Assembly: GCA_040285855.1 (NCBI GenBank)
Contig: JAUFOQ010000016.1
Location: 930,001-994,000, forward strand
Length of the DNA: 64,000 nt
Reading direction: 5' to 3'
Source: Eukaryota sp. GEM-RC1
Lineage: Eukaryota
Part shown: piece after piece, positions 5,304 to 60,189 of the stretch
Layout of the letters: each line of letters starts with the position of its first letter
Position numbering within the stretch: the first letter of the stretch is position 1
Notes under the pieces: model-generated
Seen by the model: only the letters and a program-made list of their open reading frames with translations
Told to the model about the DNA's origin: nothing
The model's database searches: none
Program-made: the position numbers and the translations under genes

Positions 5304-5454
5304 AGGGTTAGTGTAAATAAAACAATTTTGATATCGTTTTCGAATACTCGTTTGACACAACTGTTGCTCCATCAGTTCTACATTTGAACACATAATTAGA
5401 GAGAAGATTGTTCTGTTCAATCAGTTGTTTAGTGTTGGACTTGACATTGGAAAA

Positions 5455-23282: not shown

Positions 23283-24066
23283 TCTTATACGTGTGACAAA
23301 ATGGCCAACATTTTCTTATACGTGTGACAACACAATTCTCTTTTTCTTATACGTGTGACAACTGTCAAGTCCATGAATCCCAACATCCTACATGTTACTC
23401 CATTCCCCAATAATCCACATCAACTTCTTTTTAATTCATTTGATGCTTGTTTCTCGTCATGGCAAACTTATGCTGCTGAACAAGGATTTGCCATCCGAAT
23501 TGAAGGTGGAACGGAAGAACGTGGGCGTTGTTATTTCACTTGTTATGCTTCCGGTAGTTATGTTCAGGAAGGAAATAATAAAAGACCCCGTAAAACAAGA
23601 AAAGCTCAATGTCCTTGGAAAGTATATGTAAAACGAACATCTGCAGGCCAATGACTCACATATCCCAGAGTAAATGGTCACTCTCACCAAATGTTGCAGG
23701 AGCCTTCGACACTTTTCCATCACCGTGTCGTATCCCCAACCCAGAAGAATATATTGGAGTGTCTAAATCCAACTTATCCAGTCAGAAGCGTACTTGCAGA
23801 TTTGAACAGGCTAGATGGTCCCACAAATCTCACACGCAAAGATGTATCGAATCACCGTCAAGCGGTCCGCAAAGAAATTATTGGTGAAGATTCCTGTATT
23901 GAGGGCGCTGCACGAGAATATGGGGATCGCTACTATATTCAGGTGAACGAAGACCCATTTTGTGTCTTAATCTCTTTTTTTATACCTATAAAGTCTATCT
24001 ATATCAGTTGTTTACATTGGTATCCATTTCTTTGATTTTGGAATTCAAATTCTGTCACACGTATAG
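23283..24066 (+). mobile_element. Internally deleted Mutator-like (MULE) element with a FAR1/WRKY-type DNA-binding domain fragment
   Basis: ORF 23355-23654 reads YAAEQGFAIRI...YFTC...RKTRKAQCPWKVYV and continues in 23691-24035. TATACGTGTGACA occurs three times at the left (about 23286-23361) and inverted once at the right (about 24053-24065). Confidence 0.65.
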
Positions 24067-28065: not shown

Positions 28066-28758
28066 TACAACATTTGTAACTACAACATTTGGTGATACAA
28101 CATTTGTAACTACAACATTTGGTGATACAACATTTGTAACTACAACATTTGTAACTACAACATTTGGTGATACAACATTTGTAACTACAACATTTGTAAC
28201 TACAACATTTGGTGATACAACATTTGTAACTACAACATTTGTATCTATTTTTAGTATTATTTGTTTGTTTTTACAATTTCATAGTTTGTAGAAAGGTTAC
28301 CTTATTGGGTGCCGAATAAACATCTCACATTTGTAACTACAACATTTGTAACTACAACATTTGGTGATACAACATTTGTAACTACAACATTTGGTGATAC
28401 AACATTTGTAACTACAAAATTTGTAACTACAACATTTGGTGATACAACATTTGTAACTACAACATTTGTAACTACAACATTTGGTGATACAACATTTGGT
28501 GATACAACATTTGTAACTACAACATTTGTATCTATTTTTAGTATTATTTGTTTGTTTTTACAATTTCATAGTTTGTAGAAAGGTTACCTTATTGGGTGCC
28601 GAATAAACATCTCACATTTGTAACTACAACATTTGTAACTACAACATTTGGTGATACAACATTTGTAACTACAACATTTGGTGATACAACATTTGTAACT
28701 ACAAAATTTGTAACTACAACATTTGGTGATACAACATTTGTAACTACAACATTTGTAA
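28066..28758. repeat. 15-bp minisatellite (TACAACATTTGTAAC / TACAACATTTGGTGA) in three blocks separated by two identical approximately 86-bp spacers; probable subterminal repeat arm of a DNA transposon
   Basis: Seen directly. Further copies occur at 59982-60038 (unit) and 12902-12980 (spacer). Confidence 0.9.
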
Positions 28759-29410
28759 TGAAAGTGTCGTATGTGTAATGAATTGTTGACCTAGACATTG
28801 ATATTTTTTTTAAACACAACCAATAAAATATACAACCTCAGTTTATCAAACTTAACTAACACTACTATATCCCCCCATCACCCTCGCAAACATCACAGCC
28901 AACGAAAACGACTCCTTATATCCAATCCCACAACAATACTCACACATCACTTCACGAAATTCATCCAATATTCCCAAACAATGTTCATCACACATCACTT
29001 CATCATTTAAATCTAATATCGACATAACAAAAGTATTGGTCAACGACAACACATTAAAGTACTTGTCCCTATCATTCAAATGAAAACTCAAAATTTCCGC
29101 CATCAATAAATTTAAATCTTTTAACAACTGAAGTTTCAAACTCATATGTGATTGACAGTCTGATGTTGTACCACTTTGGTTCCAATGCAGTGGTACAATA
29201 TCGTGGACAATTGTAAGAACCTTTGTTTCTGTCTGCATGGAAATAGTACGAGTATTGTTCAAGTTGTTTTCAAAGTCTGTCTGAAGACCAAGTGAATTTG
29301 GTAATCTGTTGACAGATTCAGTGACCTCATGTTGTGCACTATTTTTGATAATTTCAAACTAGGTAAATTCAAATTTGGTTTGAGAGTATTTCGAGACAAT
29401 AGATTTGGTC

Positions 29411-31299
29411 TCAATTTAGGCAAAGTAGTGACTGTTGTTTTTTCAGTTTTGGCACAGGTTTGTTAAAAATTAAATCAGAATTGATGGCACTTACACTTTG
29501 ATTATTGAGACACTCATCGTCATCATTCACAACAAAATCATTCATACTAGACGACGCATCGTCATCATCATCAGTTTCATCATCTCCACTATCACTTCCA
29601 GAGACAACAACTTCATTATCGAATAATTCTAAAACTGAATCAGAAGTGTTATTCAAATTTTCAATTTTTGGAACATCCTTTTCCACCAAATCTTCCTCAA
29701 TTTCTTCATTGACTGGACCAAGAACATCAACAGTTTCTGTACTTTGACCAACACTAGAAATAATATTGGACGAAAATTCATCAAAAGTTTTCAACACAGA
29801 AGGCCAATTTCTAACAATTCTTTCATCTTCTAATGGCAAAGGATAAAGAGGTTTAGTAACCGGTCGACAGGGGTGAAAAGTGGAATAATACCACTGATAA
29901 AGATCAATTCTTGGTTTGGGAAATCTTGAAGAAATATCTAAAATTTTAATTGAGTTCCAGTTCTTCACCCTACTCAATGTAACGTACAATTGGGCATATT
30001 CCCAAAAATTTAATGAAACTTCAATTCCTTCAATTGTTAGACCCTGAGATCTATGGACTGTTATTGCCCAACAAGGACGAAGAGGATATTGCAATCGGGA
30101 TGCTATAATTACAGGCTTTTTCTTCTCATTCAACACCTCAATTTCAAATTTAGTCGGAATAATTTTGATTGGTTCTTCGTCCCTCCCGAATCTTACATTA
30201 ATGAAATGTGAAGTTTCTGAAAAATCAATAATTTTGCCTTTTGACCCATTTACTAGGCCCAGATCTGGTTTGTTTTGGGTAAACATTACCAAACCCCCGA
30301 CAACACAGTGAAATTTTTGTTCGGCAAAATCGTTTAGCCTACTTGATAATTTTTTTACATTTAAATCAACAGCCTTTTCCATTTGTTCCTCATTAGGCTT
30401 ACCAAATGCCCAACTTTTAACAATTTCTGATTTAATTAAGTTTTCATTGAACTTATCGAGGGAATGAAATTCAACATTTTCATTCCCTTGTTCACATAAT
30501 AATTCAAATTGCTTTAAATTTTCGTCGGCGACATCCTTGTTTCTAGCAAATAATTTGGTTGGACTTTCAATATTTTTGGCTAATGACTTATGTTTCAATA
30601 AAATATGTTTCATATAGTCATCAAAAAGTCCGAGACGTATTTCATTCAAAAAATTATAAAAATTGACATCACCTTGTTGTCGGATACTTCCAGATAATTC
30701 AATAAAATTTAAATTCAAGTCCTTCCAAGACTGTGATGAAAACGTAAAGTCTGAAAGTTGAAGAACAGTCCGTGTGTTTGAATCAGATTTTACAATTGGT
30801 GCAAGTTGCAAAAAATCACCAAATATTACAACTTGAAGTCCACCAAATGGTAACTGAGACTTCAGTAAATCTTTAAATATATCAGAGGCTCTGTTGAATA
30901 ATTCAGCAGTCAACATTGAAATTTCATCAATAACAAGCATTGAATTTCGAGCACTAATAGTTCGTAAAACAGACTTAACACTCGAAGGCATAGAGCGAAT
31001 GACATCAGATATTGGTTTTTCATTACGGATAAAATTATAACCAAAGAGAGAGTGTAGTGTTTGACCACCAAAGACAGTGGAAGCAACACCAGTAGTAGCA
31101 GTAAAAAGACATGGCCATTGGGTCTCATTAGCTTGGAACCCGCATTAGACCACCACTGTTTAAGACAGTACAGTAGGTAAGACTTGCCCGATCCGGCACC
31201 ACCAGTAATGAAGAAATTTCGACGCTTAGAAGGTCTTGCATGAGTAATAGCTTGGAAGACCTGAGCCTGTTCGTCTGTAAGTGTGTTGATAATGGACAT
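29411..31299 (-). CDS. PIF1-family SF1B DNA helicase (frameshifted near 31000-31130)
   Basis: GGAGSGKS, IDEISM, FGGLQVVIFGDFLQL, RQQGD, YPLRPCWAITVHRSQGLTI and QLYVTLSRV. Confidence 0.9.
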
Positions 31300-31756
31300 T
31301 GAGTGTGTGAAGTGGTGATGTTTAAGATGCAGATTGTGCAGGGAAACTTTCCTTTCACTATAATTTATATATCTACCTCCACTTTATGGAAAATGCTGGT
31401 CGTACATAATTCTTAGAAGCTTGTTCTATCATGATGAGCTTTCTATCGTCTCATATGTCAAATTATATGTCTATGTAAAACGTGATGTTGGTGTTGGGAT
31501 CGATCTTGATGAAATAGAGCAATGTATCGTGTCATTGGACTACTTTCGAGCACTCTAACTCATATCCGAGTCTTTTAAAGTCACGCCCTTGATCTTACAA
31601 ATCAAACATGAGATCTCTCTCCTAGCCCTCGTTGATGCCATTCTATCTGAAGACAAGGTACCTTCTGCTTCTGTTTCACTAAATCCAAGGTAATTCCTCC
31701 TCCTCCCTACACAGCTGATGTTCCTCGTAGAAGTAGAACACCCCGATTTGTGTTCT

Positions 31757-34430: not shown

Positions 34431-34520
34431 CGTCCACATCCGCCATTTCTCAATTCCGCCATCCAGATACTGTTTCCATTGCACGGTCACGGGATTTGGA
34501 TGGTGGGTTGAAGGAATGTG
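34431..34520 (+). ncRNA. Solo copy of the conserved stem-loop motif (type A)
   Basis: CCGCCATCCAGAT-ACTGT-TTCCATTGC-ACGGT-CACGGG-ATTTGGATGGTGG, homologous to the 141-bp unit. Confidence 0.55.
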
Positions 34521-35062: not shown

Positions 35063-35867
35063 CTATCTAAACTCAACTGAGCCCGAAACCCTGCAATGGA
35101 GTCAGTCTCGAGTTGAGTTAGATAAGGATAGGGAGGCTGCATCATCAAAGCTACGGCAGTGGATGTTGAAAATCTACTGTTTATCCACAAGTGCAGTTGT
35201 ATTTGAGTTACAATAAGTTTTAATTACAACTGATTCAGTTCCAAAAACTTTCAAGGCTTGTTTCTATGAAGAGAAATTTTTTAGACGTAGACGCCTTACC
35301 CATTATTCAAGAAAAGAACGAAGTGAACAAAACTTGGTCCACAGATTTGCTCTCCAATATGGTGATCCAGATTTTCACATGAATCAAAAACTTGCCATTG
35401 GAACGTTGAATATAGACAACGACGTTGTCGAAACTCTTCATACAGAATGTTTTTGATTTAAACTTTTCGTTACTAAAAAATTGTTTTAGTATCTTCAAGT
35501 AAATCTGTAGTTCTCATCATGAAAAGAACCAGTCACAAGATAATTAATAAAGTTAAGGCTCATTGTTCTGGGCCATTTGTACTCAACCCAGCAACAGACT
35601 GATTAGTGAACAAATTTTTGAACACGTTTATGTTGGTAAGATTTCTTAGGTTTGTGGCAGCCGACACTTAAATTCTTAGTGTGGGAACTTTCTCAAAAAC
35701 TCAACCTTCAAGTGTATGATCGTACGAATAATCAATGGCGACTTCCACGAATTAAGTGTCAAGACCTGATTTTGCCTAACCCTTCTTCTCTTTCCAGTTT
35801 GACTAAAACAGTTAACGAGGCTCTTGCCATTCCTGTTAAAACTACTACTCCTTCAATTTCTACTTCA
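35063..35867. other. Mosaic of short scrambled fragments of the downstream helicase/Fanzor block
   Basis: Eight segments of about 21-108 nt match the 48.2-48.5, 43.3, 45.6, 45.7, 52.8, 44.5, 39.9 and 36.4 kb regions. Confidence 0.85.
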
Positions 35868-36039
35868 CTGGTTCCTTTATTAATCCTGTATTAGTTAGTT
35901 ATAGTAAAACATTAATCCTCGTGAATGACAAATTCATCACGGAATGAATAAACCCACCCTATTGTATTGATTGAAAGTCAAAAATGGAATCTTTGTTGTA
36001 ATAATAGACTAGGACATAAATTTTCCTCTCTGCACAAAC

Positions 36040-37738
36040 ATGTCAACATCATTCCGTGTCCGCCAACGTTTTCCCAAACAACAGATGCAACTAGACTTCG
36101 TAAATGACATTCCTGCGGAAGTTACAGATGTTGAAATTGTCATCGTCCAAGACACTGCGGGCGACTTCTTCATTGTCGTAGTGTATAATGGACATATTCA
36201 ATACCATTTCAATCTCGTTCTTGTAACATCAGACGTTGCACAAACAAAGTTCCTTTTCAGCTTAGCATCGTCCTCTAATCTTCGTGCAATCACTCCCCTT
36301 GAAGATACACAGTGTATTAGCGACGTGATATCTTTCATCGTAAAAACCACCCTCTCATCTCATAACCTGATTGTATCCCCTTCTTCTCTTTCCAGTTTGA
36401 CTAAAACAGTTAACGAGGCTCTTGCTATTCCTGTTAAAACTACTACTCCTTCAATTTCTACTTCATCTGATTGTTGTTATGTCTATTCAGTTATCCATTT
36501 TATTATACGTCACATTGAACGTTTCTTCGAACTCAATGTAAATCATTTCAAAGAACTAGATTTTGATACTTCTGCTACTCCTCTCTTCAATTGTTTTTAT
36601 ACGAAAGATATTGAAGGTGTTCATGCGCAAATCGCTGACATTTATCCTGTTTTTGCGGCGGGTCAACACGATCCTTTCAATTTCCTTGCCAAACTTTTAA
36701 AAACACTTGACAAGGAATTCCGCACCACCTTGCCATCTTCATCAAATGATGAATTACACTCTTTGTCAAAAATTTGAACCACAGTCTGAATCAGAAGAAA
36801 CTGATACTACAGACTTCCAATATAATGGATATGATTTAGATGAGAAACCATCACCAAAAAAAGTTCAGACTCAGTTAGATGTCAAATCATCACTTCAGCA
36901 AGATTTAGATCAATTGTTGATAACTCAAAAATTAAAGCATTCTTGTGCTGTTAATGCATTTTGTTTCTGTATTAAAACAACAACAAAATGTTCTTGGTGT
37001 GGGACTGATCCGACATCTAAAATTCACTTCGCCTTGGATATTAACCAGGAAAGTATCCAAAGGCGGTATCCTTCTAGACCAACCGATCTCGAATCATTGT
37101 TGCAAGCTCATCTACCTTTTCGAAAAGAAATAATTTGTGCTACTTGTCCTGAACAAAAATCAGAAATTACTGAAACTTTTGCTTCTCTTCCAAAAGCTCT
37201 TATCATTAGACTGACTGGACATCCTCAACCAGTTACTATTTCTTCAAATCTATCACTCTATCTATTCCTGTCTTCTGAAGGACAGATGGGTTCAGAATCG
37301 ATTGAGTTTTCCCCTACCAATGAAATCAACTCACAACTGCCACTTAAGGACATTTACACATTGTCTCATTATCCAACATCAGAAGAATTGTCTGTCTTTG
37401 ACATTTCTAATGAAAATGAAAGAAAGTGTGGGAGTCAGCATTTTGTTAGAGGTAGTGATTGGGAAAGAAGTACCAGTCGAACCTCAACCGCCAAAGTGTC
37501 AACCAAGACCAAAAGTAGTGTTGAAGAAAAATACACATACAGACTGCTGTCTGCGATCTGTCATTACGATTCCCTTGCTGACGGTCACTGTGTGACATAT
37601 GCAAAGGAAAAAGAAGGTTCTTGGTGGTTACATGATACCAATAGTGATTGCAAGAAAGGTGTAGACGAACAGACAGTATTAACTGAGATTTCTTTAAATG
37701 GCTATGTTTTACTTTATCAACATCAATATTTAGAATAA
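36040..37738 (+). CDS. USP / peptidase C19 deubiquitinase-like protein (frameshift near 36770)
   Basis: Cys box SDCCYVYSVIH, GQHDPFNFL, LPKALIIRL, His box HYDSLADGHCVTYAK...WWLHD and GYVLLYQ. Confidence 0.75.
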
Positions 37739-37888
37739 ACGCATAGTAATAAATTGTTCTACATGTATCTAAGAGAAAATAAAAGTGTACACAAAGCGAT
37801 CCTTGTAAATGTAGTTGTGAAGACATGAGAATTCCTTGTTCTATCAGTACAGTATAGTTGTTTACAGCTCCATAATTTTCCCACTCCA

Positions 37889-40800
37889 ATGACTTCTATT
37901 ATACTGCTAACACCCCTCGCCTCGTCCACATCCGCCATTGCTTCATCACATCACCCAAACACTGTTTCCATAGCACGGTCACGGGATATGGATGGTGGGT
38001 TGAAGAAATGTGTGAATACGTGCTTCCCGATGTCGTCTCCGCTTATTCTGTGCTCTATCCTCTCGTCCACATCCGCCATTGCTTCATCACGTCATCCAGA
38101 TACTGTTTCCATAGCACGGTCACGGGATTTGGATGGTGGGTTGAAGAAATGTGTGAATACGTGCTTCCCGATGTCGTCTCCGCTTATTCTGTGCTCTATC
38201 CTCTCGTCCACATCCGCCATTGCTTCATCACGTCATCCAGATACTGTTTCCTTAGCACGGTCACGGGATTTGGATGGTGGGTTGAAGAAATGTGTGAATA
38301 CGTGCTTCCCGATGTCGTCTCCGCTTATTCTGTGCTCTATCCTCTCGTCCACATCCGCCATTGCTTCATCACGTCATCCAGATACTGTTTCCATAGCACG
38401 GTCACGGGATTTGGATGGTGGGTTGAAGAAATGTGTGAATACGTGCTTCCCGATGTCGTCTCCGCTTATTCTGTGCTCTATCCTCTCGTCCACATCCGCC
38501 ATTGCTTCATCACGTCATCCAGATACTGTTTCCATAGCACGGTCACGGGATTTGGATGGTGGGTTGAAGAAATGTGTGAATACGTGCTTCCCGATGTCGT
38601 CTCCGCTTATTCTGTGCTCTATCCTCTCGTCCACATCCGCCATTGCTTCATCACGTCATCCAGATACTGTTTCCATAGCACGGTCACGGGATTTGGATGG
38701 TGGGTTGAAGAAATGTGTGAATACGTGCTTCCCGATGTCGTCTCCGCTTATTCTGTGCTCTATCCTCTCGTCCACATCCGCCATTGCTTCATCACATCAC
38801 CCAAACACTGTTTCCATAGCACGGTCACGGGATTTGGATGGTGGGTTGAAGAAATGTGTGAATACGTGCTTCCCGATGTCGTCTCCGCTTATTCTGTGCT
38901 CTATCCTCTCGTCCACATCATGGAAACGTGATCTCTCTATCGATGGAGACGTTGAGCAGAATCCAGGTCCCCATGATCGTTTACCATCCCCAGAAGTAAA
39001 GAGACCCAGAAGAACTTCTGTGTCACCATCGCCTCCTCCATCTCTGCCAGAAACGCTACCAGAAGAACTGCCAACACAAGAACCGCCAACACAAGAACTG
39101 CCAACAGAAGAAACTCTAACAGAAGAACCGCCAACAGAAGAAACTCAGCTAAAACAAAAGAAACATAATCAAAGAACTAAATACCACATGGGCATATTGC
39201 ATCGTTACTGCCGTATTCCACATGAAACTTTTGCCCATCCAGTGCTAAGATCTGGAAGAACACCTGGTTTCCAAGTTTGTTCATGTATGAATCATGTTTT
39301 TATAGATGAATCCGAAAACTTAACTGATCTCGCTCCAGATGTCATTCCCAATCCAGACAATGAATCACGACGCTCGTTCCTGGCCCAAATTATGCAAGAG
39401 TGTTGCAAACCTGGTGACACGCCAAGTAATTGGAGAATTGAAAATTACATCATGGCCAAACACTATGAATCGGAGTTGATTGAATGTCAACAAGATGCTA
39501 ATCATTACTTGCTCAGTTATGATGGAGCGTTGGAATCCCTCCATAAATATTGGTGTCAATTGTGTGACCCTAATCGAGAATCTACTGTGAGTTTACCGAT
39601 TATGCCTCTTGGATTCAAATATGAGATGCCTCCCCATTGTCCTCAAAAACAACCTTCTTTTCGTGAATCGTTTTGCCTTTTTATTGCTCCATGTCTCTTC
39701 TGCCTTCTTCCTGGTCACAGTTATAATGAATGTCCCTTCCAAACTTTTAGACTTAGTGATGTTTCATTAAGTATCACATCCTTGTATCAAAATATCAACC
39801 CTAAAGTTTTGGTACGTCCTGAGGTTATGCTGGACATTTTATTAACAATGCTCCATCTGCAATTTGTTGTGGAGGAGAAAAAACTCAACCTTCAAGTGTA
39901 TGATCGTACGAATAATCAATTTACTTTGGAAATGTACAAAGAAAACCAAAAAGTGATTGAAAAGTTTGCAAAGTCAAAAGCTACTTATAAACTCAAAATG
40001 TTAATCTTTGATATTGCTCATGTTATTGAATTAATTAAAAAAGAAGCCCCCAAAATACCTGATGTTGATGTCAAAGATTCTGATTTTGAACATACTGACG
40101 ATCCTACAGACGATCCTTTAAATGATGACGGATTTGATGATCTATATAATCAAACTTCTGTTAGTATTATGTGGGATGATTTTAATAATATCAGAGATTC
40201 GTCCTACACTTCTCAATTACTTTCAAGATTTTTTAACTTTTGTCATTTTCTCGAGCACTATACTTTTGTGGATACAGATGAAGAAAGCCGCATTGTCGAA
40301 ATTAAAGACCCTGAAACTAAACAAGTTGTACAACGGAAAGAAGTTTACCGACATCAGTTTACTGTATATCAAGATTTTTTCGAAAACAAAATTGAAACTA
40401 TGAGTATGCTCATGTTCCAACTGTCATTTTGTGCCCATTACCATTATGAACAAAAAAAAGAAAACAAAGATCTCTCTTTAATGTCTTTCTGTTTCCAGGC
40501 AATGGAATACTTAGTCTCATTGTCATGGTTGGCGTCAAATCATAGTGATTACAAGATGTTGTTAGATCATTATCTTCAATGGAGACGACCTCCCCGCTAT
40601 GTTTACAATTTCCCAAGCACTGTGACTTCACCAGAGGAACCAACGTGTACATTTACATCAATTGATTTTCCTAAAGTATGTTCTAAATTAGCACATTTGA
40701 AATCTTATGTCCGCGAAAGTGATTTACTAACACAAATTCTTCAAATTTTGACACTAAATGAACAGTGGAATAATACAGTTGACAGTAATGACGCCTACTT

Positions 40801-43800
40801 CCACTTGGTGTTTTCTTGCTTTCAGTTGATTTCAAAAGCACGTAACTGCCGTATTGCATTTGTTAATGAAGGAAAAGACACTTTTTATCAATTGTTTCGT
40901 GTTGTTGGTCAAAATCATGTCAAAGACAACAATATTATTCCGTTTATTGTTTCTGGTCAAACAGGTTCCGGGAAATCTGTCTTAACTGGTGTTGTTGTGG
41001 TTATGGTTACTTTGAAACCAATCATTGTGTGTCAACCTAGAGTTCTACCAGCCACAAAACTCTCCGATTTTATCAATGATTTATGTCATAGTGATTTTCC
41101 TCTGTCTGGATACCGAACAGGCAACAAGAATACGAACATTCCAGTACATTCACCAAGATTTATCGAAGTTCAAACCGCTGCCTTCACTTCTAAATTTCTG
41201 ACAAATAATAGCAATCTGTCTCGATTTGCAACTATCATGGTGGATGAAGTTCATGAAAGAAAATGTGACATTGACATTTTATTAGCACAAATGAGAATAA
41301 TTTCCCAAACTGATTCAAAATTGAGAGTGGTAATCTGTTCGGCAACTATGGACAAACCTAATCCTTGTTTTAATTACCTTACACAAGGAAATTATTTAGA
41401 TACCGAACCCTCCTATACTATCCATGCAGCTGGAAGAACCAATCCACTGATTGTCCTTGATGTGAATTTTGTTCGTCAAAATGAATTTCATTATAGTCCC
41501 TTAATATCAAAACTTGTGATAACTCCGATTTTTGAACCTACACTTCAACAGGTTTTCAACGATCATTTTATTGATATTTACACTTATTTTGTCTTCAATG
41601 TGAACTCATACTACGACTATTTCACTCAACACTGTAATCCTCTTTCATATAAAAGTATCAATTTCAGAGCGTTAGCCCGACTATGTCTCTGTTATTACTC
41701 CCTGTCTCAGAAACTTTTTCAGTTTGAACCAGAATGTACAGGATTTACTTTGCTCGTGTTTCTTCCTGGAAGTCCAGAAATTACAACTCTCAGTAATATT
41801 ATTGAGAATGAGTATGAGAGTCAGAAAAAAGTGGATCTGGTGGTCTATACATCCCAGCTTCTTCTGAGAAGCCAGGTGTGTATCCGTTGTATTCAAGTCT
41901 GGATTCAGTCCAACAAGATGCAGCTGTGGCTAAACCAGCGAAAAAACAATTTAAAATTGTCATTGCTACCAATATAGCAGAATCTTCCTTGACTATTGAT
42001 GGGGTCAAATTTGTCATTGACTGTGGTTTGTCAAAGCAAACTGATGCAGATGACCTTCTCGACACTCATCATTGCTCCATTGCTTCTTTGGACCAGCGCT
42101 CTGGTCGTGCTGGAAGAAATTCTCCTGGACTTTCGTTACGTCTTGTGCAGACAAACTTATATCCGAATGGAACTTCGAGATTGCATTTCGACGAACCAGA
42201 AATTCTAAATTGTTCGTTGATTGAGCCATTGTTAACAATCAAACAGATCGCTGAAAATCCTCAATTTTTAATCAGTAATCGTCCAAATCCCCCTGAATTT
42301 TTTATCAGTCAACTGCCTGATGTTCCTTCTAGCGAGAACATCATGTCTTCGGTTGATGTTCTTTTCCGCACTAATGTTCTTTCAAAAAACCAACTAAATT
42401 CTCCCCTTACTTATCTCGGAAAGATTTGCACCAATGCCAATATTTCATTCTACAACTTCAAGTTTTTATTTTTCTGTTTAACAAACAATTACCTGTGTCC
42501 TGGATTGATTCGTCTTGCGGGTATCAATTCTATGTCGTTCATTCGTTGCTCTCGTACAACTTTTATGTCATTTTACGATTTGTATACCTTTTCACAATCG
42601 ATTCCTTTACTCAAACAACTCTCTACTATTGAAGAATCTAAAGTTGTACGTTCAGACATGTTTTTCAAATTATCCTTGGTTCATTACATTTTATGTGGCG
42701 AATTTATTAAAAATCTGGATATTGTCCCAACACGTGATCAAACCCTTAATGATCAAGCCCTTAAGAATTTATCTAAATTAGTTTTTTTGGAAAAAACTAG
42801 AGCGATATTTAAATGAACTAAGATCTTTAGTTTCACGTTTCGTGGATATGGAAGATTCTAATACTCATCTCAAAAATCAATTAATATCATTGGAAGGCAT
42901 TGCTCTAAAACTTGTCAATTTCATATCAAATCCTTCTGAAGTTACACTCAATAAGTTTCGAAATGAATCAACAATCTTCTCTTCTCTTTTTGAATCTCCA
43001 AATTAAACGACGTCTCTCTTTCAAGCCATTGTGGCTTCTTATCCCAATAAGTCATTCCATTCAACTGTAGTAGACAATTCATTCTCAGTTAGGTTGAAGT
43101 TGGAAGGTTATGTCAATGGAAAAAATTTAACAGCTTTATAAAGAAATTGTTTGATGAACAAAAAATTGTCAAATCTTCCAAATCTCTAAAAGTTAATGAC
43201 AGTGATGATGACAGTACTCGTTCAGAGACATTATGTTCAAAAGTTAAAATTACTTCAGATCTAGCTCCAGGTGAAACCGAAAGCACTGTTGTTATGTTGC
43301 ATTCAGAGAATACAACTGAAATTGAAAATCTACTGTTTGTCAACAAGTGCCGTGGAACTCTTTATTCATTAAAAAATTTTTCTCTTACGTTCCATCTTGA
43401 TTGGTATAGATTCATTATCAAATCACGATTCAATTTATCAATGGCATTGAAAGTTGTCAATGACCCAGAATTTTGGAACATGTACAACCAATTGTTACAG
43501 TGGGGTAATATCGTACATTTGCATATACCAAGAAATTCTATTAAATTAACTTTCGACATTATGTCAAGTCCTTGTAGTGATTTGACTCAATACACTCGTA
43601 TTGATAATGAGTGGTCCAAGGAAGTTAAATGTGCCAAATCACTGTTCCCTGTACCTACAGATCTAGGTTATCATAATGGTATTTCTGTTGGTGATAAGTT
43701 TCCACAATTCTTGTCTCATATTCCTTCTTCTTTTCAATACTTGTTCATCGTATGGCTCATGAACTTCAATATCAATTTGGTTTCGGAAATGGCAAAGCCA

Positions 43801-46534: not shown

Positions 46535-48012
46535 TCATTCTTCGTTTTCCTGTTTTTTCCCTAAAACTTCATTTTCGTCTTTTGTCTTTAACGATTTGTT
46601 TTCAAATTTTGTTCTTGAACAATCAATTACATTTTGTTCTGTCACCAAGTCAGGTTGTACACTCTGAAGTAGATCATACATAACAAGACATAGATTTTTT
46701 CTTGATCTGTTAGTGTATAATTTTGTCTGATTTTGTTCCTGACGTGCATCAACCATTAATCCTTGTAAAATTAAAGTAACATTCAAACAGACAATCCATC
46801 CACAGATAAGAGACGATGTTGACTGTGCAAAAGGTATATAGTAGTCCACCTTATACTCTGGTAATCTTGCAAACAGATTTGTTTCCCCACATCCATAAAC
46901 AGTTCTAAAAGGATTAACGATTAATTCAGTGGTTAATGAATAATCCAAAGAATCATAAATATTGAATAGTAAAACATTTGCTTCATTTAGAAACAATTCA
47001 ATAAGAATCCAATGACCAGATCCTGCATCACCAGGAACATGTTCTTTCACCAAACATAATGGGGCAAGAATTCTTTTCCTGATTTTAGTGTATCGACAAT
47101 AGCCTTACCAGAATGTAAGGCATAGCATATTGGATCACCAACCAACTGTTGAGTTTCTTGAGATTGCAGGAACTTGTACCTACTTGATTTAAATTTTTGG
47201 AATGCAAGCATCACAATGAAATCAAGTTCAGAACTCAACAAGAGTTGTGTTTTACCTTCCCTATCATCCTTTGTCAACATTTTTTCAATATCACAAAATC
47301 CAGATTTTAATTTTGAATTTATGTAAAACTGATCACTGATTAAATCTACAGAAAGAATCAACGGGTTACGTTGTTTTTTGCGTTTCATAGGTTTAGATAA
47401 ATTAGCATTATCAATGACCGGAACAGGAACTATTTCAGATGGTTCAGAGAAAATAGAATGAATATGATTGATTGCGAAGTTATCAATACGACGTTTTGGT
47501 GAAGGAAAAACGACTTGAGATGGAGTATCGTTAATGCGAGTATTGTCACAAGCATGTAAAAGAGTAGGAGACTGAGGCTGAGGAGGAGGAGGGGAACGAG
47601 CAATTGTAACTCGTTTAACGTCTTTGAGTAGATCCTTAAGATGATTTAGAGTTGAAGTTGTTGATTGAAGTGGAAGAGATATGTCACGCTTCTCATAAGA
47701 ACCATCAAAAGGAAAGAGATGAACAGTTTCTAGATCAACATCTAGCACAATGGCAACGGCTGCTTTGTAGTTGAGGCAAAAATCCATGGTACCCTTTTTA
47801 AGATCATCTGGTAAGTCAGATGTTGACACTTCCGTTATGTGGATGGATTTAGTTCTCCATGAATTGTATGTTCCATAAGGAAGAAGAACAAGTGACAAAT
47901 TAACTGCATGCTTATCAGCAAGCTTTACAACAAGTTTCATATATGTTTTGATGGTACGGGAACGACTTTCTTGTTCAGAAGTATTTCTGAGTTTGAAAAT
48001 TGAGTAGGACAT
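46535..48012 (-). CDS. Ulp1/C48-like SUMO/Ubl protease (frameshift near 47055)
   Basis: GHWILIEL...YDSL...QSTSSLICGWIV gives the H-D-Q-C catalytic order. Confidence 0.65.
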
Positions 48013-48159
48013 GGGAAATTCTGGTATAGACTTTATTACAGATTTCGTTTTTTAACACGTGAATTCCCACACACATGTCCATTACAGTCTGTGTGGGATT
48101 TCATTTTCCTTCCTCCTACAGTATAAATGTCGTTTGTTCTGCATCCAAACAGATGTTGT

Positions 48160-48535
48160 CCGCCATTCTGTCCTTATCTGACTCAACTTGTGACTGTTTC
48201 CATTGCACGGTTTCGGGCTCAGTTGAGTTTAGATAAGGACAGTTCTTTCCCTCCACTGCCTCCGCTTCTGTTGCTTCTCCCTCTACTGCCGTTGCTTTCC
48301 CCACTTCTGTTGCTTCGATAATGCCGCCATTCTGTCCTTATCTGACTCAACTTGTGACTGTTTCCATTGCACGGTTTCGGGCTCAGTTGAGTTTAGATAA
48401 GGACAGTTCTTTCCCTCCACTGCCTCCGCTTCTGTTGCTTCGATAATGCCGCCATTCTGTCCTTATCTGACTCAACTTGTGACTGACTCCATTGCACGGT
48501 TTCGGGCTCAGTTGAGTTTAGAAAAGGACAGTTCA
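48160..48535 (+). repeat. Three tandem copies of stem-loop motif type B
   Basis: Copies at 48160, 48324 and 48449: CTGTCCTTATCTGACTCAACT ... ACTG(TT/AC)TCCATTGCACGGTTTCGGG ... AGTTGAGTTTAGATAAGGACAG. Confidence 0.92.
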
Positions 48536-49756
48536 TTCTGTGTTTTATCAACACATACATTTATTGCCATGAAGTACTCGTCTCCCCTGTTTATCCCTTC
48601 CCATCCTCCGTTCCCAAAAGACCTCACCGCTGATGGTGATATTGAATCCAATCCAGGACCCGTAACTCAAGAAGCCATAAACTCAGTTTATCCTAATCAA
48701 TGGGTTGATGACGAAGCGATAGTGGAGTACTGTAAAGTGATATTTCAAGAAGCAGGGTTAGACTTTGAAAGCATGTTTATCCATCCGACCACATGGCTTC
48801 AATACATTGTTTCACCAGATGTCCCGCTAGATCAATGGTTGTTGACGAAAATTGAGAAAAATCAAATCACAAACTCCAAATATCTCTTTGTTCCCCTTAG
48901 TGATACCATGACTAGAAATACTAATTATTCCAGAGAAGGTGTCACTGGTTCTCATTGGGGTTTAGCCATTATAGACTGTTGTGAAAAGGAATGGATCTTC
49001 ATTGATCCAATGTTAACTACCGTCGATATGAGTAAGTCTATGGTAAAATCAGCTGTAGACATATTATCCGAAGTACTTGTGCCATGGGGGTATGTTTTCC
49101 GTTATGTACCTGTGACTAAAAGTCAGTCTGCTAACGACTGTGGAGTTTATGTCATTGCGTATATTCAAAAATATGTTGAACTTTTTAAAAGACTCATGTA
49201 TGTTCCGTCTCTGATGTATATGGAGTCTGATTTGGTCCAAGTGAACATTGAACTTCAAGCAGACATATTTCGTGAAGAAATTCTGGAGGTCTTGTCTCAA
49301 CAAAGGACACTTTATCTACAACAACGTCAAACCACAGTAGCTCCTATTGTACCATCGTTACCCATTCAACCTCCTGCCGGTAAAGAACATCCAACCACTT
49401 CAATTCCTCTCACAGGTTCACGTCTTGCTAGTACTAAAACATCTACTGGTTTAAGCACTAAAAAAAGGAAAGCCAAAATTTCAGATGTTCCATCACCACG
49501 AGGTTCACCTTTAATTCAACGAAATAAATTTAGAACTACCAGCTCCCTTGTTTCAACTGGTGACACTCCAATACGAAAGACCCACCGCCGTATGTCCACA
49601 TTGGAATCATCGGAATTACCACAATCTGAACTATCATCACCATCTGAACTATCATCACCATCTGAACTACCACCATCTGAACTACCACCAAAATCACAGG
49701 CCTCCATTATGTCGTATCCATCGCCAATTCAAGAAGAAATCCAAAAATGGAAGTAA
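48446..49756 (+). CDS. 2A followed by a Ulp1/SENP (C48) protease domain and a Ser/Pro-rich linker
   Basis: WVDDEAIVEY, LFVPL, SHWGL, IDPM and QSANDCGVYV. Confidence 0.85.
   Translation: MPPFCPYLTQLVTDSIARFRAQLSLEKDSSFCVLSTHTFIAMKYSSPLFIPSHPPFPKDLTADGDIESNPGPVTQEAINSVYPNQWVDDEAIVEYCKVIFQEAGLDFESMFIHPTTWLQYIVSPDVPLDQWLLTKIEKNQITNSKYLFVPLSDTMTRNTNYSREGVTGSHWGLAIIDCCEKEWIFIDPMLTTVDMSKSMVKSAVDILSEVLVPWGYVFRYVPVTKSQSANDCGVYVIAYIQKYVELFKRLMYVPSLMYMESDLVQVNIELQADIFREEILEVLSQQRTLYLQQRQTTVAPIVPSLPIQPPAGKEHPTTSIPLTGSRLASTKTSTGLSTKKRKAKISDVPSPRGSPLIQRNKFRTTSSLVSTGDTPIRKTHRRMSTLESSELPQSELSSPSELSSPSELPPSELPPKSQASIMSYPSPIQEEIQKWK
48620..48661 (+). other. 2A/StopGo peptide DLTADGDIESNPG|P
   Basis: Exact D(V/I)ExNPGP consensus. 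Confidence 0.9.
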
Positions 49757-50751
49757 ATCTACACACTGAGCCTATAGAAGAAGAAATACAAATTCAAGAC
49801 TTTCTTAAATCCCCTTTACTTTGGAACAATCTGCCAACTTTTTGTTTAATTCATGTTCAAAGTGATTTTGCCAGTTCAGAAAGAATTAATGGCAAAAATG
49901 TTCAACTTGTTCAAGATGATGATGACATTGAAACTGTTGAAGGTGAAGCTGAAGATCAATTAGAAGTTAAACGTGATTCTTCTGTTGATCCGATTGTATC
50001 AATTTCCATCCAGATCATTGATCACAATGAATTCAATGAAAAGCATTTATTTTCTCATGGTAATTTTGATACTACAAACTTGGATTTGTGTACTTTACAT
50101 ATTTCAGATAGTGAATCCAGTATGCTTAAAAACTTCATTTCCTTCATTACTCAACATTGTCCGCGATTGTTTGTGAGTTATGACTTTCACTTAGATACAT
50201 TTCCCTTTCTTGTATCACGTTGTCAAGTCCTCAAAATCAATACAACGTTTACTTTTCCAGAATTTAAACCCTATATTCCCTTTTGGTTCAACAAATGGTG
50301 TAAGGAAACAACTTTTGGTCCGTTTTTTAGTCTCGATTTGAATGCTGTATTGAAGAATTTTTATGTCTTTACTGGTGGCCGTTTTTTGGAAAATGTTGTT
50401 CAAATTTTTCTTGAAATGAATAATTTTTCTAAAAATGAAACTGTCAAACGCTTGGAAGAACTTGATCATGACTCTGATCCTGATGAAGTTCAATTGGTCA
50501 ATGATGTCCAAAACTTGCATGGCATAATTGACAGTATTAATGTTTTAGTTCCAGACAATCCCAAAGTGAAGGTCGATAAGATTAAAAAGAAATTTGTAAA
50601 AAATTTGGAGAAAGTAAATGAACTTTGGGCCAAGGAATCGACAAGACCGCTATTGTTGATGAACTCAATTCAACAATTACCTCTGATTGAATACTTATTG
50701 GCTGACCTATTGGATCCCAAAAACAAACATTACGTTCAAAGTCACCAATGA
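49747..50751 (+). CDS. Degenerate family-B DNA polymerase 3'-5' exonuclease-like domain
   Basis: SESSMLKNFISFITQHCPRLFVSYDFHLDTFPFLVSRCQVL and LDLNAVLK...LENVVQIFL resemble PolB Exo II and downstream motifs. Catalytic residues appear altered. Confidence 0.5.
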   Translation: MEVNLHTEPIEEEIQIQDFLKSPLLWNNLPTFCLIHVQSDFASSERINGKNVQLVQDDDDIETVEGEAEDQLEVKRDSSVDPIVSISIQIIDHNEFNEKHLFSHGNFDTTNLDLCTLHISDSESSMLKNFISFITQHCPRLFVSYDFHLDTFPFLVSRCQVLKINTTFTFPEFKPYIPFWFNKWCKETTFGPFFSLDLNAVLKNFYVFTGGRFLENVVQIFLEMNNFSKNETVKRLEELDHDSDPDEVQLVNDVQNLHGIIDSINVLVPDNPKVKVDKIKKKFVKNLEKVNELWAKESTRPLLLMNSIQQLPLIEYLLADLLDPKNKHYVQSHQ

Positions 50752-53630
50752 AAGTGGTTAAGAAACGACTAGACAATGTTGTGTCCAAAGCGAAGGTTAA
50801 ATTTATTGAATCTCGTGTTAAGAGAGCTCACCAAGTAAGAGTCCGTAGTACTCTCTTTTTGAAACATTTTTTTGTTCATAATTTTCACCATTCTGGTATT
50901 TTAGGTTACATTCAGAAGTTACTGCCTGCTGCTGTTCCAAATGTAACTGTTAAGGAAGAAATGAATTCTGATACAGATGAGTCAACTGACGAAGAAACAG
51001 ATGTACATTCAGAGTCTATCGATGCTGTTACTCCTCCTATTAAATTAGAAAATATTGAAGATGCGAGTGATGAACCTAAACCTGAACCTGACCTTTGGAC
51101 TAAAATTCAAACTGCCAAAATTGAATTGCCAGACTGGAAGAATTTTTTTACGTTGAAATCAATGGAACAAGTGTTGTCTATGATGACGATTAGGGACAAC
51201 AAACTTGTAAACAATCAGAATCATATTGAGACTGTACAAAAATCGTTAACAAACATAATTTCTAACACAAATGATGGCTCAACTCAAAATCAGTTTGCTC
51301 AACACTTATTGTTTCATTACATTCCTCGTTTAGAACTAGCTGCTGATTCCGTTGGACTTGATAGGATTGTGTTTCCCAGTAGCCATCGTTTATCTCCTAT
51401 ATTGCATTACATGGCTACAGAAATTATTACAAATTACAAGAAAAACATGAGTGAACACTTTCACGAATATGTTTTTCAAGTATTTAATTTGGTTACCCTG
51501 AAAAAGAAAGACTTAACAAGCGTACTGATAAGAATCAACGACAAGAGTTGTGTACAAAGCTTAATGAAGTCAGACAGTTGATCATTAATGGGGAAATTTC
51601 AAAAATTAATTTTCAAGATGTTGAAGTGTTTCCTGATCCCAATTCTAGACTGAGTTTACTATTTTTTAACTATTTGTTTACTTTTTTTGAAGGTAAAATG
51701 GAAAAAACAATCTATTATGCAGAAAAAGTAGATCCTTTGAAATTCTTAAGTCATGCAGTGTATTTGAAACGTCTTGTTGAGGACTCTTGTACTGGAGTTA
51801 CTGCCAACAATCCTTTTCCTCTGACAAAATCATTGATTCCTAATCATATCAGATTGGATACTACATGGTTTAAAAAAGTTTATGCATCAGAAATTAAAGG
51901 TAGCTTTGATGACGTTCGAAAAGATATTTGGCACTCAGTTTTGAAACCAAAGTTTCTTCCAAAGTCATTGTCTCATGACTTCAAATACAGTTCTATTTCT
52001 ACAGATGGAGTTAGCTGTAGTTTAATGATGATGCGGAAAGATCTGCTTGATGGGAGAGGAAATCCTCATAAGAAGGTGAAAGCTGTTGACTACACAGCTA
52101 CTGAAAGGTACATTGATTCTTTGAGTTCCACAGAAATTCAAAACTTAAATTTGAAATCAAAAGAATTGTTGCTATTGATCCTAATCAGCATGATTTGATG
52201 TATTGTGCTTCTTTAAAATCTAAGGAGGAAAAGAAAATCGAAGGTTTCGATACATCAGCCAATCTCAGAAGAAGAAAGATTTGTCCAAAATCGTCAAAGA
52301 AAAAAGGAAGCTTGAAAAAATTAAAAAAGGAATTGAAGGATTGGAAAGACGCACCTACTATTGACAAACCATCAACTGTCAAGTTGAAAAATCGAGACAA
52401 TTGGAAAGTATTCAGATACACTGCTGGGGAACGCAATGCCGATATTAAAAAGTCTCCATGGAAAAGAAAAAAACAAGTAAGGAAAGAAAAAGAGCTAAGA
52501 GGAAGAAGAGGAAGCTGGAGAAGAAAATAAGACGATACAATCTCCACCGTTTATCTGAATCCGAACGGTTACAACAATATTCTACTCAATTTATTCACAT
52601 TCCAGATGGCAGACGCATTGACATAAATGGGCAACAAATTTTAGATCAATGGGGCTCTAACTCGCCAGGTAGTAAATCTTGTGAATTGACTCAGTATTCT
52701 GCTTTTGTTCTTGGTAAAGAAATTGCCTGCTCTTTACTACGATCACCCACTACTGATCAAAAAACTACTGAAGGAATTTACGAAGAAAAGTGGTTTAGAC
52801 GGAATCGTCTCACACAGTATTCAAGAAAGGAACGAAGTGAGAAAAACATGCTTCACAGATTTGCTCTCCAGTTTGGAAACCCAGATGAAGTCGTTGTTGG
52901 GTATGGAGACTGGAACGACACTACTTTTCGTCGAAGAAGAGGTAAAGCATCTACTGTAAAAGGTGCTTCAATTCGGAAATTATTGAGAAAATTTGGATTT
53001 AAAGTGTTCCTAGTTGATGAATTTAAGACCAGCAAATGTTGCTCTGCATGTGTTTCCAGAAACGACGAAGGTATCTGTTCCAATCCTGAAAGGATAAAAG
53101 TCACTGATCCTCATTGGAAGAAGAAGTTACAGAAGGAAGAGAAAAGAATTAAAAAAGGAAATTATGGAACACAATCAATTAGACAATATTGTGGAGCGTA
53201 ACTTTGATGATGAATGGACCAAACAGTTGACATTATCGAAAGAAAGATTGAAGAGCAAAAAGTCTCACCATGGGGCTTAGTTGAATGTGCCAAATGTCAT
53301 GTCCTCTGGAATAGAGACTTCAATTCTGCTATCAATATTTACAATATTGTAAATGGAACCATTCAAGGTCAAGGTAGACCTGCCATCCTCGAGAGACCAA
53401 AATCTCAAACAACACCTGTCGTGGATGGCGGGAATACAGATCAGATTCCTAAGAAAAAGACTGTGAGTAAGGGTAAGGGTAAAGCAAAGCGTCCTCTAAC
53501 AAAAGTCAGAGGTCCTAACAAGTGTGGTATATGTTTTCAACCTGGACATAACAGAGCAACTTGTCCAAATAAGCCTAAGAAAGATGTACCCAAGGACTCA
53601 CATGTAAACCAGAAAGATCAGGAATCTTGA
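50748..53630 (+). CDS. Fanzor: Fanzor (eukaryotic TnpB-like RNA-guided RuvC nuclease, Fanzor1-like) with a C-terminal zinc knuckle; several indels at A-runs
   Basis: ISTDGVSCSL; RuvC-I VAIDPN (D at 52177); VVVGYGDW; RuvC-II LVDEFKTSKCCSAC (E at 53019); CAKC..WNRDFNSAINI (D at 53316); CGICFQPGHNRATC. Confidence 0.9.
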
Positions 53631-53635
53631 ATCTA

Positions 53636-53770
53636 TGAAGTTAGCTCGTCTTAAAAGACTTTGCGAATGAGGACTTTGTCAACTGTGGTTTATCTCATGA
53701 AAATGTGAAGGGTTATGCCCTTATGCATTTGGAATGAAATTCACAGTAGGGTTGATAATTGAATCACTTG
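53636..53770 (+). ncRNA. Putative Fanzor omegaRNA scaffold plus 3' guide
   Basis: Immediately 3' of the stop: hairpin GTCT-TAAA-AGAC, then a long stem ACTGTGG.../...TCACAGT enclosing AATGT-G-AAGGGT-TAT-GCCCTT-AT-GCATT. Confidence 0.6.
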
Positions 53771-53809
53771 CAACTGTTAATTTATCAGTGAAGAGCGCAT
53801 CAACATGTT

Positions 53810-55416
53810 ATGTCTACTACCGTATCAGCTCCTTCCCAGCGTACCCGTCTTGCACTGAACCTATTTGATGCATACATCACCTCCTTCCAATCGAATATTC
53901 CTTCTGTCAAAACCATCCCTTTCTGGAAATCTGTTATTAGAACTGTTGACGGCCGTTTTATCTATAGATCTTCTCTTCCTCCCAATGGTCCTATTCCCTA
54001 CATTGAGTTGTCTCTACTGACTTCCCACCTCACCCCTCCCTTACTAAGATCTACTTCTTCTAATCCATCTGCTTCATTTTTTCTTGTTACCCACCCTTAT
54101 GGTATCTCAAACCCTTTACCTCTCTCTGATACTGATTCTTTGAAATGTGCTCTTGCTCAATTAGACAATTCCCTGCAATCCATCTATTTCAACTCAATTT
54201 CTCCCCTTGTTTACCAACCTTCTCCTCAGATTATCCCTTCTACTCCTTCTCCAAGCTATCTCTCCCCCGTACTTCCTCCAGATCATCCTTTCCCCCACAG
54301 ATACGGTCTCCTGCTCGTCCACAATCTGCTTCCAATGTCACTAAGCCAGTTCAGCGAACCCCCAGACCCCAAACAACTAGACCGCAAACTGCTAGACCCA
54401 TGACTAGGAGTGGACGGTCTTTGATCAGTATATTGGAACAAATATTTGAAATAGATTATTTTACTGATAATTTAAAAATTGAAGAGGTAGTCTTGTGCAG
54501 GGAGAGTTTTGAAGATTATGAACGAATTACGATTCCATTTCTTGCCTCTTCACATATGCATAAAAGGTCAAAAGGATGGATTAATGACCTTTCTATCCAT
54601 TTCAGTCAATCAACTTCAATCATATTACGTGACGGTCGAATGATTCGATTGATTGATGAGGATGATTGTTCAATCACACTTTCCGCTTTCAGACCAACTC
54701 GATTAGGAGATCACCTTGACGACGTGGAAGATGTGACTTTTCTTGAAAACGACGTGATTTATGACCTTCAGTTACTTCCACATTCTGACCAAGTTGAAAT
54801 CGTTACCTTTTCTAAACGTCTTGATCTACTGTCACTTAGAGATGTGTCATCGCCAGCAGATGCTCATCATTTGGGACTTTTGTTGGACACAAGTACACAT
54901 GCACTGCAGCATTATTTAAATATTTCAAATTCTGAAATTTCCACATTTATTTGCTATCCACCCAGATTTCATCATTTATGTAGTAGAAGTATCGTCAGAA
55001 CTAATTTCATGGATTATTTAGAAAATCTAGAAGAGCCTATTTGTGTTGATCAAATGCCATCATCTTTTGGTGCACTTTTGTTCAAGTCACACGTACTTTC
55101 TTGTCTTTCCACTTCCTTTTCTTACTTTGTTGCCCACACTTTCTTTTTCTATACCGGTCTATCTAGTTGTTGGGCAACTCTGTTAAAGGATGACCAAGAA
55201 GAAGAATGTTTCAGTTACTCTAATTCGTCATCAATCAATTCTGATAGCCAATCATTTAACACCCAATCTCTTCTTCTTGCAACTCCTTTGCTTTCTTCAC
55301 CTGCTCCACAGCCCAAACCAGTTGATTCATCCCCAAGAACTCATCAGATTGCTCCTTCTTTATCCAGGATCAACAGACTAAGTTCTAGAAGGAGACCACA
55401 GAGTGCTTTTCGATGA
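53810..55416 (+). CDS. Protein with a divergent DcpS (scavenger decapping, HIT-like) domain; frameshift near 54280
   Basis: ESFEDYERITIPF...WINDL, LLSLRDV and ICYPPRFHHLC resemble DcpS motifs, but the His triad is degenerate. Confidence 0.45.
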
Positions 55417-59981: not shown

Positions 59982-60038
59982 ATTTGTAACTACAACATTT
60001 GTAATGACAACATTTGTAACTACAACATTTGTAACTAT
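59982..60038. repeat. Short copy of the 15-bp ACAACATTTGTAACT minisatellite
   Basis: About four units identical or near-identical to those at 28066-28758. Confidence 0.85.
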
Positions 60039-60189
60039 ATTGTAGTGTTGCAATCAAAATGTATTGATGGCTTGAAAATACCAAAAGTAAGAATATTGGT
60101 AACATAATTGTTTACTTCAAAAACGTTAAACCTTAAGAAACAAACTCGAGTATTATCTACAAACTATCAATCGACAAAAAGTACACTCT

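Follow-up and report, generated by a model that had tools for sequence, protein, structure and literature searches.

A Fanzor1 nuclease that is probably joined to a protease and an exonuclease-like domain within one protein is encoded in a 64,000-nucleotide stretch of DNA (hereafter the window) from Eukaryota sp. GEM-RC1, contig JAUFOQ010000016.1, positions 930,001 to 994,000. By its name this organism corresponds to Skoliomonas sp. GEMRC, a free-living metamonad with a nanopore assembly corrected with Illumina data (PMC11316075). Eight overlapping reading-frame pieces on the + strand (48446-53630) carry, in this order, a leader, a 2A motif, a cysteine protease, the exonuclease-like domain, Fanzor1 and a zinc knuckle (Table 1). 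The locus is one copy of a multi-copy repeated mobile element. It is best explained, with good confidence, as a transposase-less element that makes a single protein of ~1,730 residues, whose reading-frame breaks are probable long-read errors and which would act through the steps proposed below. What appears new is the architecture; the nuclease itself is of the known Fanzor1 kind.

The nuclease and its partner domains

The three domain types named in an earlier, sequence-only reading of the window were all recovered by profile or PDB searches. Pfam matches lay above the cut-offs for Peptidase_C48 (48401-49753; 28.3 bits against 20.7) and for DNA_pol_B_exo1 (PF03104; 49681-50748; 33.9 bits against 23), and the RuvC-II piece (52449-53198) returned PpFz1 (E 1e-4) and SpuFz1 (E 2e-4) as its top PDB matches. 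Matches of 53214-53627 to TNB and a zinc knuckle were both below the Pfam cut-offs, and a NCBIfam scan gave sub-threshold matches only, to TnpB and Cas12f. RuvC, zinc-finger, protease and 2A residues are retained in every paralogue covering them, and the zinc knuckle in 12 of 12.

By sequence and by modelled fold, the nuclease part is a Fanzor1. The catalytic triad D, E, D, the C4 zinc finger and an RD motif stand in Fanzor order, as they do in the paralogues compared (10/10, 16/16 and 13/13); a codon check found the triad at the positions first assigned to it and the cysteines of the predicted CxxC finger from 53037 to 53049 and at 53286/53295. The motif DEFKTS, with the RuvC-II glutamate, lined up with the identical motif in PpFz1 and SpuFz1, and a rearranged RuvC-II glutamate beside the zinc finger is given as a Fanzor1 trait (PMC10530073). 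Colinear homology links the window to the intact relative P0056 of a second species; the profile E to Fanzor1 is 1e-109. The model of P0056 (residues 257-1440; pLDDT, the predicted score in a local distance difference test, 70; predicted template-modelling score 0.67) matched PpFz1, SpuFz1 and GtFz1 at E 1e-16 to 1e-23 in Foldseek and at Z 21-26 over 536-593 aligned residues in VIA-align, the next family reaching 11.8; ApmFz2 (Z 8.7) and TnpB (Z 9.5) scored below Fanzor1. The profile or structural match to Fanzor that had been named as a test was found in both forms, the structural one on P0056. Because the fold match of P0056 starts at the residue equivalent to window position 50748, in the first strand, the window holds a whole Fanzor1, with the third reading-frame break (J3) inside REC.

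Like SpuFz1, PpFz1 and GtFz1 (PDB 8gkh, 9cf0, 9cer), the intact relative is modelled with the whole WED-REC-RuvC-TNB fold and has D-x-N at RuvC-I. Unlike Fanzor1 proteins, which are mostly 600-700 amino acids long (PMC11423790), the nuclease part here spans ~880 and stands at the end of a 1,730-residue polyprotein; no exonuclease or protease domain was found in the 15 long matches scanned (688-913 amino acids). Giant-virus proteins gave similar scores. A quick tree of 60 rows, in which long branches meet and from which P0051 and the short matches were left out, placed 13 rows of the Skoliomonas lineage on one side of a fully supported branch and 47 other matches on the other, which weakly supports this grouping. 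The protein is probably an active RNA-guided nuclease.

The protease has a His-Asp-Cys triad and an oxyanion Gln (codons in Table 1), and the triad is invariant over three 2A-protease families of the GEM-RC1 assembly. It had been described as a SUMO/Ubl (Ulp1) protease; the C48 profile and the triad bear out the fold class, but the scores lie nearer to the NEDD8 protease SENP8 than to Ulp1. SENP8/NEDP1 led the fold ranking, obtained with a low-confidence model, and was the top eukaryotic chain in the profile search, and bacterial NopD stood above SENP8 by sequence score. Specificity for NEDD8 may be taken as a lead only. Next to the element, a divergent gene on the - strand (46535-48012), broken at an A-run near 47070, has by eye C-terminal H, D, Q and C motifs in C48 order (GHW, YDS, Q..CG); Pfam gave no match for it, and pairwise comparison gave no significant match to the element's protease.

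Assignment of the next domain to the PF03104 fold is supported by Atlas features (agreement 0.91), and its sole match outside the family is a full-length PolB (E 1e-4). Like the proofreading exonuclease of family-B DNA polymerases, which the profile represents, P0056 and two further relatives from the second species (P0198, P0212) retain ExoI DxE, ExoII NxxxFD and ExoIII YxxxD. These motifs are absent in the window's family and largely absent in the sister-family protein P0009. Unlike the polymerase exonuclease, the domain has no polymerase behind it and an acidic insertion after ExoI. The exonuclease-like label therefore stands for the fold, as the profile match is above the cut-off, but not for the catalytic acids, and the enzyme of the window's family is probably catalytically dead.

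The motif DGDIESNPGP fits GD[V/I]ExNPGP, and all 11 paralogues that extend over it retain it. Across its six frames the window has just one other NPGP motif, at the head of a second element described below. Such a motif is insufficient for skipping by itself, a suitable upstream tract being needed as well (PMC3708506). Its place near the N-terminus of a long open reading frame (ORF) is that seen in the 2A-bearing non-LTR (long terminal repeat) retrotransposons L1Tc, Ingi, CR1, L2 and Crack (PMC3708506); unlike those, the present element has no visible reverse transcriptase, APE endonuclease or poly(A) tail, and 2A precedes a protease or a linker to the exonuclease. The number of 5' repeats varies among copies, with one to three in the paralogue leaders, and we infer that this would fit a role of 2A in fixing the N-terminus.

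Reading-frame breaks and the single-protein interpretation

The pieces are separated by seven breaks: J1 (A5, 49743), J2 (A5, 50719), J3 (A5, 51501), J4 (A4, 52159), J5 (A7, 52467), J6 (A4, 53142) and J7 (A5, 53257). All seven fall on A-runs of 4-7 bases; A-runs of at least 4 make up 5.8% of the region's bases, and 42 A/T runs of at least 5 were counted in 5,185 bases, or roughly one every 123. The placement of junctions on A-runs was part of the sequence-only reading and holds throughout, but they number seven, not six; the unclear junction near 53200 turned out to be two breaks, J6 and J7, both on A-runs. None of the eight segments contains an in-frame stop.

These breaks can be compared with 39 proteins that are 92-99% identical to the window and lie on 10 contigs of the same Skoliomonas-lineage assembly. 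A first search with the RuvC-II piece gave one long relative; look-ups of the window's fragments, four of the eight being found, and later searches then yielded the 39. Since 16 paralogues each hold the RuvC-II region, at least 16 other copies of the element exist. Against the paralogues, J1, J2, J4, J5 and J7 are each one base short and J6 has one base extra; J3 is one base short against a sister family. Paralogues cross six junctions in frame (J1, 11 of the 39; J2, 5; J4, 10; J5, 4; J6, 12; J7, 12). Because no residues are lost at these six, predicted introns do not explain the bridging and were ruled out there; the gaps in the paralogue models P0016, P0020 and P0204 lie elsewhere. All 27 early-ending paralogues end within 12 bases of a run of at least 4 (21 at runs of at least 5), spread over ~17 sites. 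Breaks of this kind also affect host genes of the window. The break in eRF3 had been cited as the same indel pattern, and it is indeed a homopolymer break, judged by eye to lie on a C4/T3 run and not on an A-run.

J3 is crossed gaplessly by the sister-family proteins P0002, P0004, P0007 and P0009 when aligned with the window's two frames. P0009 is a single ORF of 1182 amino acids, from the exonuclease to the first half of the zinc finger, colinear with six window pieces. In the second species, TZLM3-RCL, P0056, P0198 and P0212 are unbroken ORFs of 1473-1491 amino acids with leader, 2A, linker, exonuclease and complete Fanzor, without the protease. Two families, from two named species, thereby have exonuclease and Fanzor within a single ORF.

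With varied homopolymer sites and broken host genes, the pattern of breaks is one of sequencing error, not decay, J3 excepted; the seven breaks are probably long-read homopolymer errors, and the assemblies of the named relatives indeed derive from nanopore reads corrected with Illumina data (PMC11316075). The eight pieces likely form one protein, and the gene is likely one of 1729 codons. Reading through with an X at each break gives 1729 residues, 1658 after 2A, in agreement with the ~1700 first proposed. The one-ORF interpretation is strongly supported by these comparisons except at J3: paralogues bridge six of the seven breaks and sister families encode exonuclease-Fanzor or 2A-exonuclease-Fanzor in one ORF, but J3 is uncrossed in the window's own family.

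Ten further proteins (P0050-P0055, P0201, P0218-P0220) from Skoliomonas-lineage assemblies represent at least four more diverged Fanzor families and two more 2A-protease families; joining of the protease families P0218-P0220 to a Fanzor could not be shown. Pattern searches for related loci gave 5 matches in viral contigs and 167 in metagenome contigs, none of them confirmed.

Table 1. Features of the Fanzor element (positions in the window)
Feature	Position	Strand	Basis or remark
First 5' hairpin, loop core TCCATTACA	48059..48106	+	Fold -21 kcal/mol; likely near the element's left end, end position inferred
Direct repeats at the 5' end, three in all, each folding into a long hairpin (~21-bp outer stem), loop core TCCATTGCAC; also read as leader peptide	48160..48538	+	Folding z -6.1 and -3.6
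Leader closing in 2A motif DGDIESNPG/P (48632-48661)	48446..48661	+	Codon check
Clan CE / C48 cysteine protease; triad H48953, D49004, C49139; oxyanion Q49124	48662..49350	+	Profile and codon check; nearest eukaryotic structure SENP8/NEDP1
Linker rich in Ser/Pro/Thr that has a basic patch and ELPPS repeats and contains J1 (A5 at 49743)	49350..49810	+	Sequence
PolB-type 3'-5' exonuclease-like domain without the ExoI DxE, ExoII N..FD and ExoIII YxxxD residues	49822..50715	+	Profile and paralogue comparison
Fanzor1: WED, REC, RuvC with basic insertion, C4 zinc finger with insertion; D52177, E53019, D53316	50745..53400	+	Contains J3-J7; J2 (50719) just upstream
Break J3 inside REC region	51501..51505	+	Sole junction without any crossing copy of the window's family among those examined
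CCHC zinc knuckle in basic tail	53523..53564	+	Codon check; stop codon 53628-53630
Candidate omegaRNA, moderately structured non-coding stretch from stop to next ORF	53630..53790	+	Folding z

Mobility, proposed mechanism and competing explanations

No transposase was found in or beside the element by Pfam, NCBIfam or the ORF survey; the sequence-only reading had likewise seen no DDE or HUH transposase next to it. The Spu-1 Fanzor1 element is likewise multi-copy and without a transposase of its own (PMC10432273); unlike Fanzor1 elements, no 30-nucleotide terminal inverted repeats were found here. The element had been taken to start at 48446, but its left end probably lies farther upstream, at ~48055-48127. 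An omegaRNA after the stop is plausible from the sequence; the + strand is favoured in folding (-41.5 vs -27.8 kcal/mol), and all seven Rfam matches were below the gathering score. Of six hairpins tested, five fold better on the + strand. On a different stem, the 5' loop core is found again in seven repeats before a 2A-DEAH-helicase ORF and at 34431, and 12 of the 16 exact matches to its pattern fall within these elements. The loops at 48200, 48364, 48489 and 35099 contain AUUGCAC or AUUGCAG, the sequences that U1A and U2B'' bind in U1 and U2 small nuclear RNA. The 5' repeats were judged not to contain an HDV-like (hepatitis delta virus) ribozyme or a hammerhead: compared by eye with the consensus, they have no P1 partner and no CUGANGA.

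In the proposed mechanism, translation would start in the variable 5' repeats, and 2A skipping would release a ~1,660-residue protein with the same N-terminus from every copy. Fanzor1 would load an omegaRNA from the 3' end and flank and cut alleles that lack the element, so that the element would tend to be retained or copied, a role already proposed for TnpB and Fanzor. More tentatively, the protease might strip NEDD8, SUMO or ubiquitin from host proteins or from the element's own, blunting silencing or turnover, by analogy with the Ulp1 cargo of plant Mutator-like elements (MULEs) and Helitron-like elements. Conceivably, the exonuclease trimmed cut ends in an ancestor and still could in the sister species, what remains here being a dead nucleic-acid-binding or structural remnant. 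It is also possible, as a tentative suggestion, that new insertions are made in trans by an enzyme recognising the shared 5' hairpin.

Several observations weigh against the explanation as a whole. J3 is crossed by none of the 39 proteins; three break identically, with the same tail as the window, nine others begin at first methionines downstream of it, and no full-length protein of the family is among them. At 92-99% identity the copies are young, so that conserved catalytic residues speak only weakly for selection. The model of the N-terminal half of the window's family is poor (pLDDT 32) and is the one used in the fold search, and the exonuclease part of the otherwise good P0056 model is mostly below pLDDT 50. 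Spacing from D to [TS][TS] is 283 in the paralogue P0045 and 281 in P0056 (254 in P0009), against D-X(125,275)-[TS][TS] for Fanzor1 (Bao and Jurka 2013, PMC3627910). An insertion after RuvC-I accounts for the excess; PpFz1, with a 100-residue RuvC insertion, is still a Fanzor1 (PMC11423790), and given that insertion the range is read here as descriptive. Between 47960-48165 and 53600-53860 the longest repeat matches, 7-8 nucleotides, equal those of shuffled sequences (mean 7.8), and no target duplication above chance was found. The omegaRNA candidate folds modestly (z -2.0 to -2.5), and 4 of 63 control windows reach z -2.0.

The J3 findings could mean that six breaks are errors and J3 is real, the ORF being split inside REC; full nuclease would then arise only when a ribosome now and then shifts frame by -1, keeping a toxic nuclease scarce and leaving the 2A-protease-exonuclease half in excess. 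Besides the lack of crossing among the 39 proteins and the three that share the window's break, it speaks for this that a similar A-run context at ~49875 is broken in only three paralogues and intact in seven. The 39 proteins are, however, cluster-mates of the window's own fragments plus the products of later searches, a choice that makes copies with a break at this position more likely to be included, and one cluster has 11 members outside the sample. A programmed frameshift signal found no support either: G-AAA-AAG is not the canonical slippery site X-XXY-YYZ, and no stimulatory structure follows (z -0.6 and -1.2). With sister families continuous across J3, the split is improbable. Real indels throughout, in a copy or whole family decaying as a pseudogene that spreads passively while function is left in sister families only, would agree with seven frameshifts in one copy, the lack of an intact family member among those found, the degenerate exonuclease and a decayed Fanzor fragment at 35265-35372. 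Set against this, the eight segments are free of in-frame stops, the catalytic residues of RuvC, zinc finger and protease are all intact, the breaks occur only on homopolymers and differ among copies, and the essential host gene eRF3 is broken in the same way, all of which makes decay very improbable.

A further possibility is that the element is autonomous in a new way, Fanzor cutting and end trimming by the fused exonuclease driving its copying by host repair without any transposase. High copy number without an encoded transposase, the sharing of one ORF by exonuclease and Fanzor in two families of two species and the grouping of Skoliomonas-lineage Fanzors in the quick tree speak for this. 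Yet two families with a degenerate exonuclease are still multi-copy, the 5' hairpin core also occurs in a 2A-led element that has no Fanzor and so points to a common trans factor, homing accounts for filled alleles and not for new loci, and transposase-less Fanzor1 elements such as Spu-1 are already known (PMC10432273); autonomy is scarcely probable. A transposase-less element with one ~1,730-residue protein is still preferred.

Taken singly, the parts are all known from other mobile elements: Fanzor1 without a transposase, Ulp1 cargo, an N-terminal 2A and DEDDh nucleases, the last mentioned in P and piggyBac elements (PMC3627910). A captured C48 protease also occurs in the Ulp1-carrying Kaonashi/VANC of Vandal MULEs and in Helitron-like elements with Peptidase_C48 or UCH cargo (PMC13317346, PMC11417382); unlike in those, which have a DDE or RepHel transposase, the protease here is fused to an RNA-guided nuclease and lies nearer to SENP8/NEDP1. 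A term search of the accessible text of PMC3627910, PMC10711439, PMC10432273 and PMC10530073 found no natural protease or exonuclease fusion of a Fanzor, and literature searches, largely by title, found no description of a protease-exonuclease-Fanzor architecture. Fanzors often carry extra domains according to fig. S1B of PMC10530073, which may bear on novelty; Peptidase, Ulp1 and DNA_pol were not found in two text supplements of that paper.

Interest in Fanzors has centred on their use as compact editors, while what they do in eukaryotic transposition is an open question. Here a natural nuclease-exonuclease fusion comes in live and dead versions, which makes a benefit of end trimming to Fanzor persistence testable, and public databases already hold unbroken relatives of 1,470-1,490 amino acids. 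From the fused protease one may suspect an RNA-guided selfish element with its own counter-defence against ubiquitin-like silencing, and the common hairpin-2A head may mark an unrecognised mobile-element group. A broader formulation, which we regard as unlikely, is that a metamonad lineage evolved an RNA-guided nuclease with an end-trimming exonuclease, whose catalytic residues the sister species retains, and in certain families with a protease that removes NEDD8 or SUMO, within an undescribed class of 5' hairpin-repeat and 2A elements that carry interchangeable payloads (Fanzor; a DEAH helicase 10 kb away) and spread without a transposase of their own.

Neighbouring features of the window

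The second 2A-led long ORF (37829-42816, +) contains DGDVEQNPGP at ~38940-38970, a zinc-knuckle-like motif and DEAH helicase domains. Seven ~141-bp repeats precede it, with the hairpin loop core of the Fanzor element, and no nuclease or reverse transcriptase was seen in this second element. Between 34430 and 35870 lies a patchwork of short copies of nearby sequence: the helicase-element repeat, an inverted Fanzor 5' repeat, pieces of 36378, 39879, 43322, 44482 and 45644, and a 79%-identical piece of the Fanzor RuvC (35265-35372). It looks like a gene-capture or silencing-trap locus.

A Pif1 helicase (29411-31383, -) and a UCH-type deubiquitinase (36013-37738, +) lie close to the 2A elements. 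Helitron-like elements typically carry both of these domain types; a Pfam scan showed no Rep domain near these genes. Presumed relics, recognised by eye and without Pfam matches, are the end of a non-LTR restriction-like endonuclease (1605-2200, -), a BED-finger/hAT piece (5356-6126, +) and a MULE piece (23655-24035, +). The element's neighbours, which we take by recognition to be tubulin, eRF3 and CPSF3-like genes, place it in a eukaryotic context. Two arrays of one repeat with a 15-bp period are located at 28066-28760 and 59982-60049.

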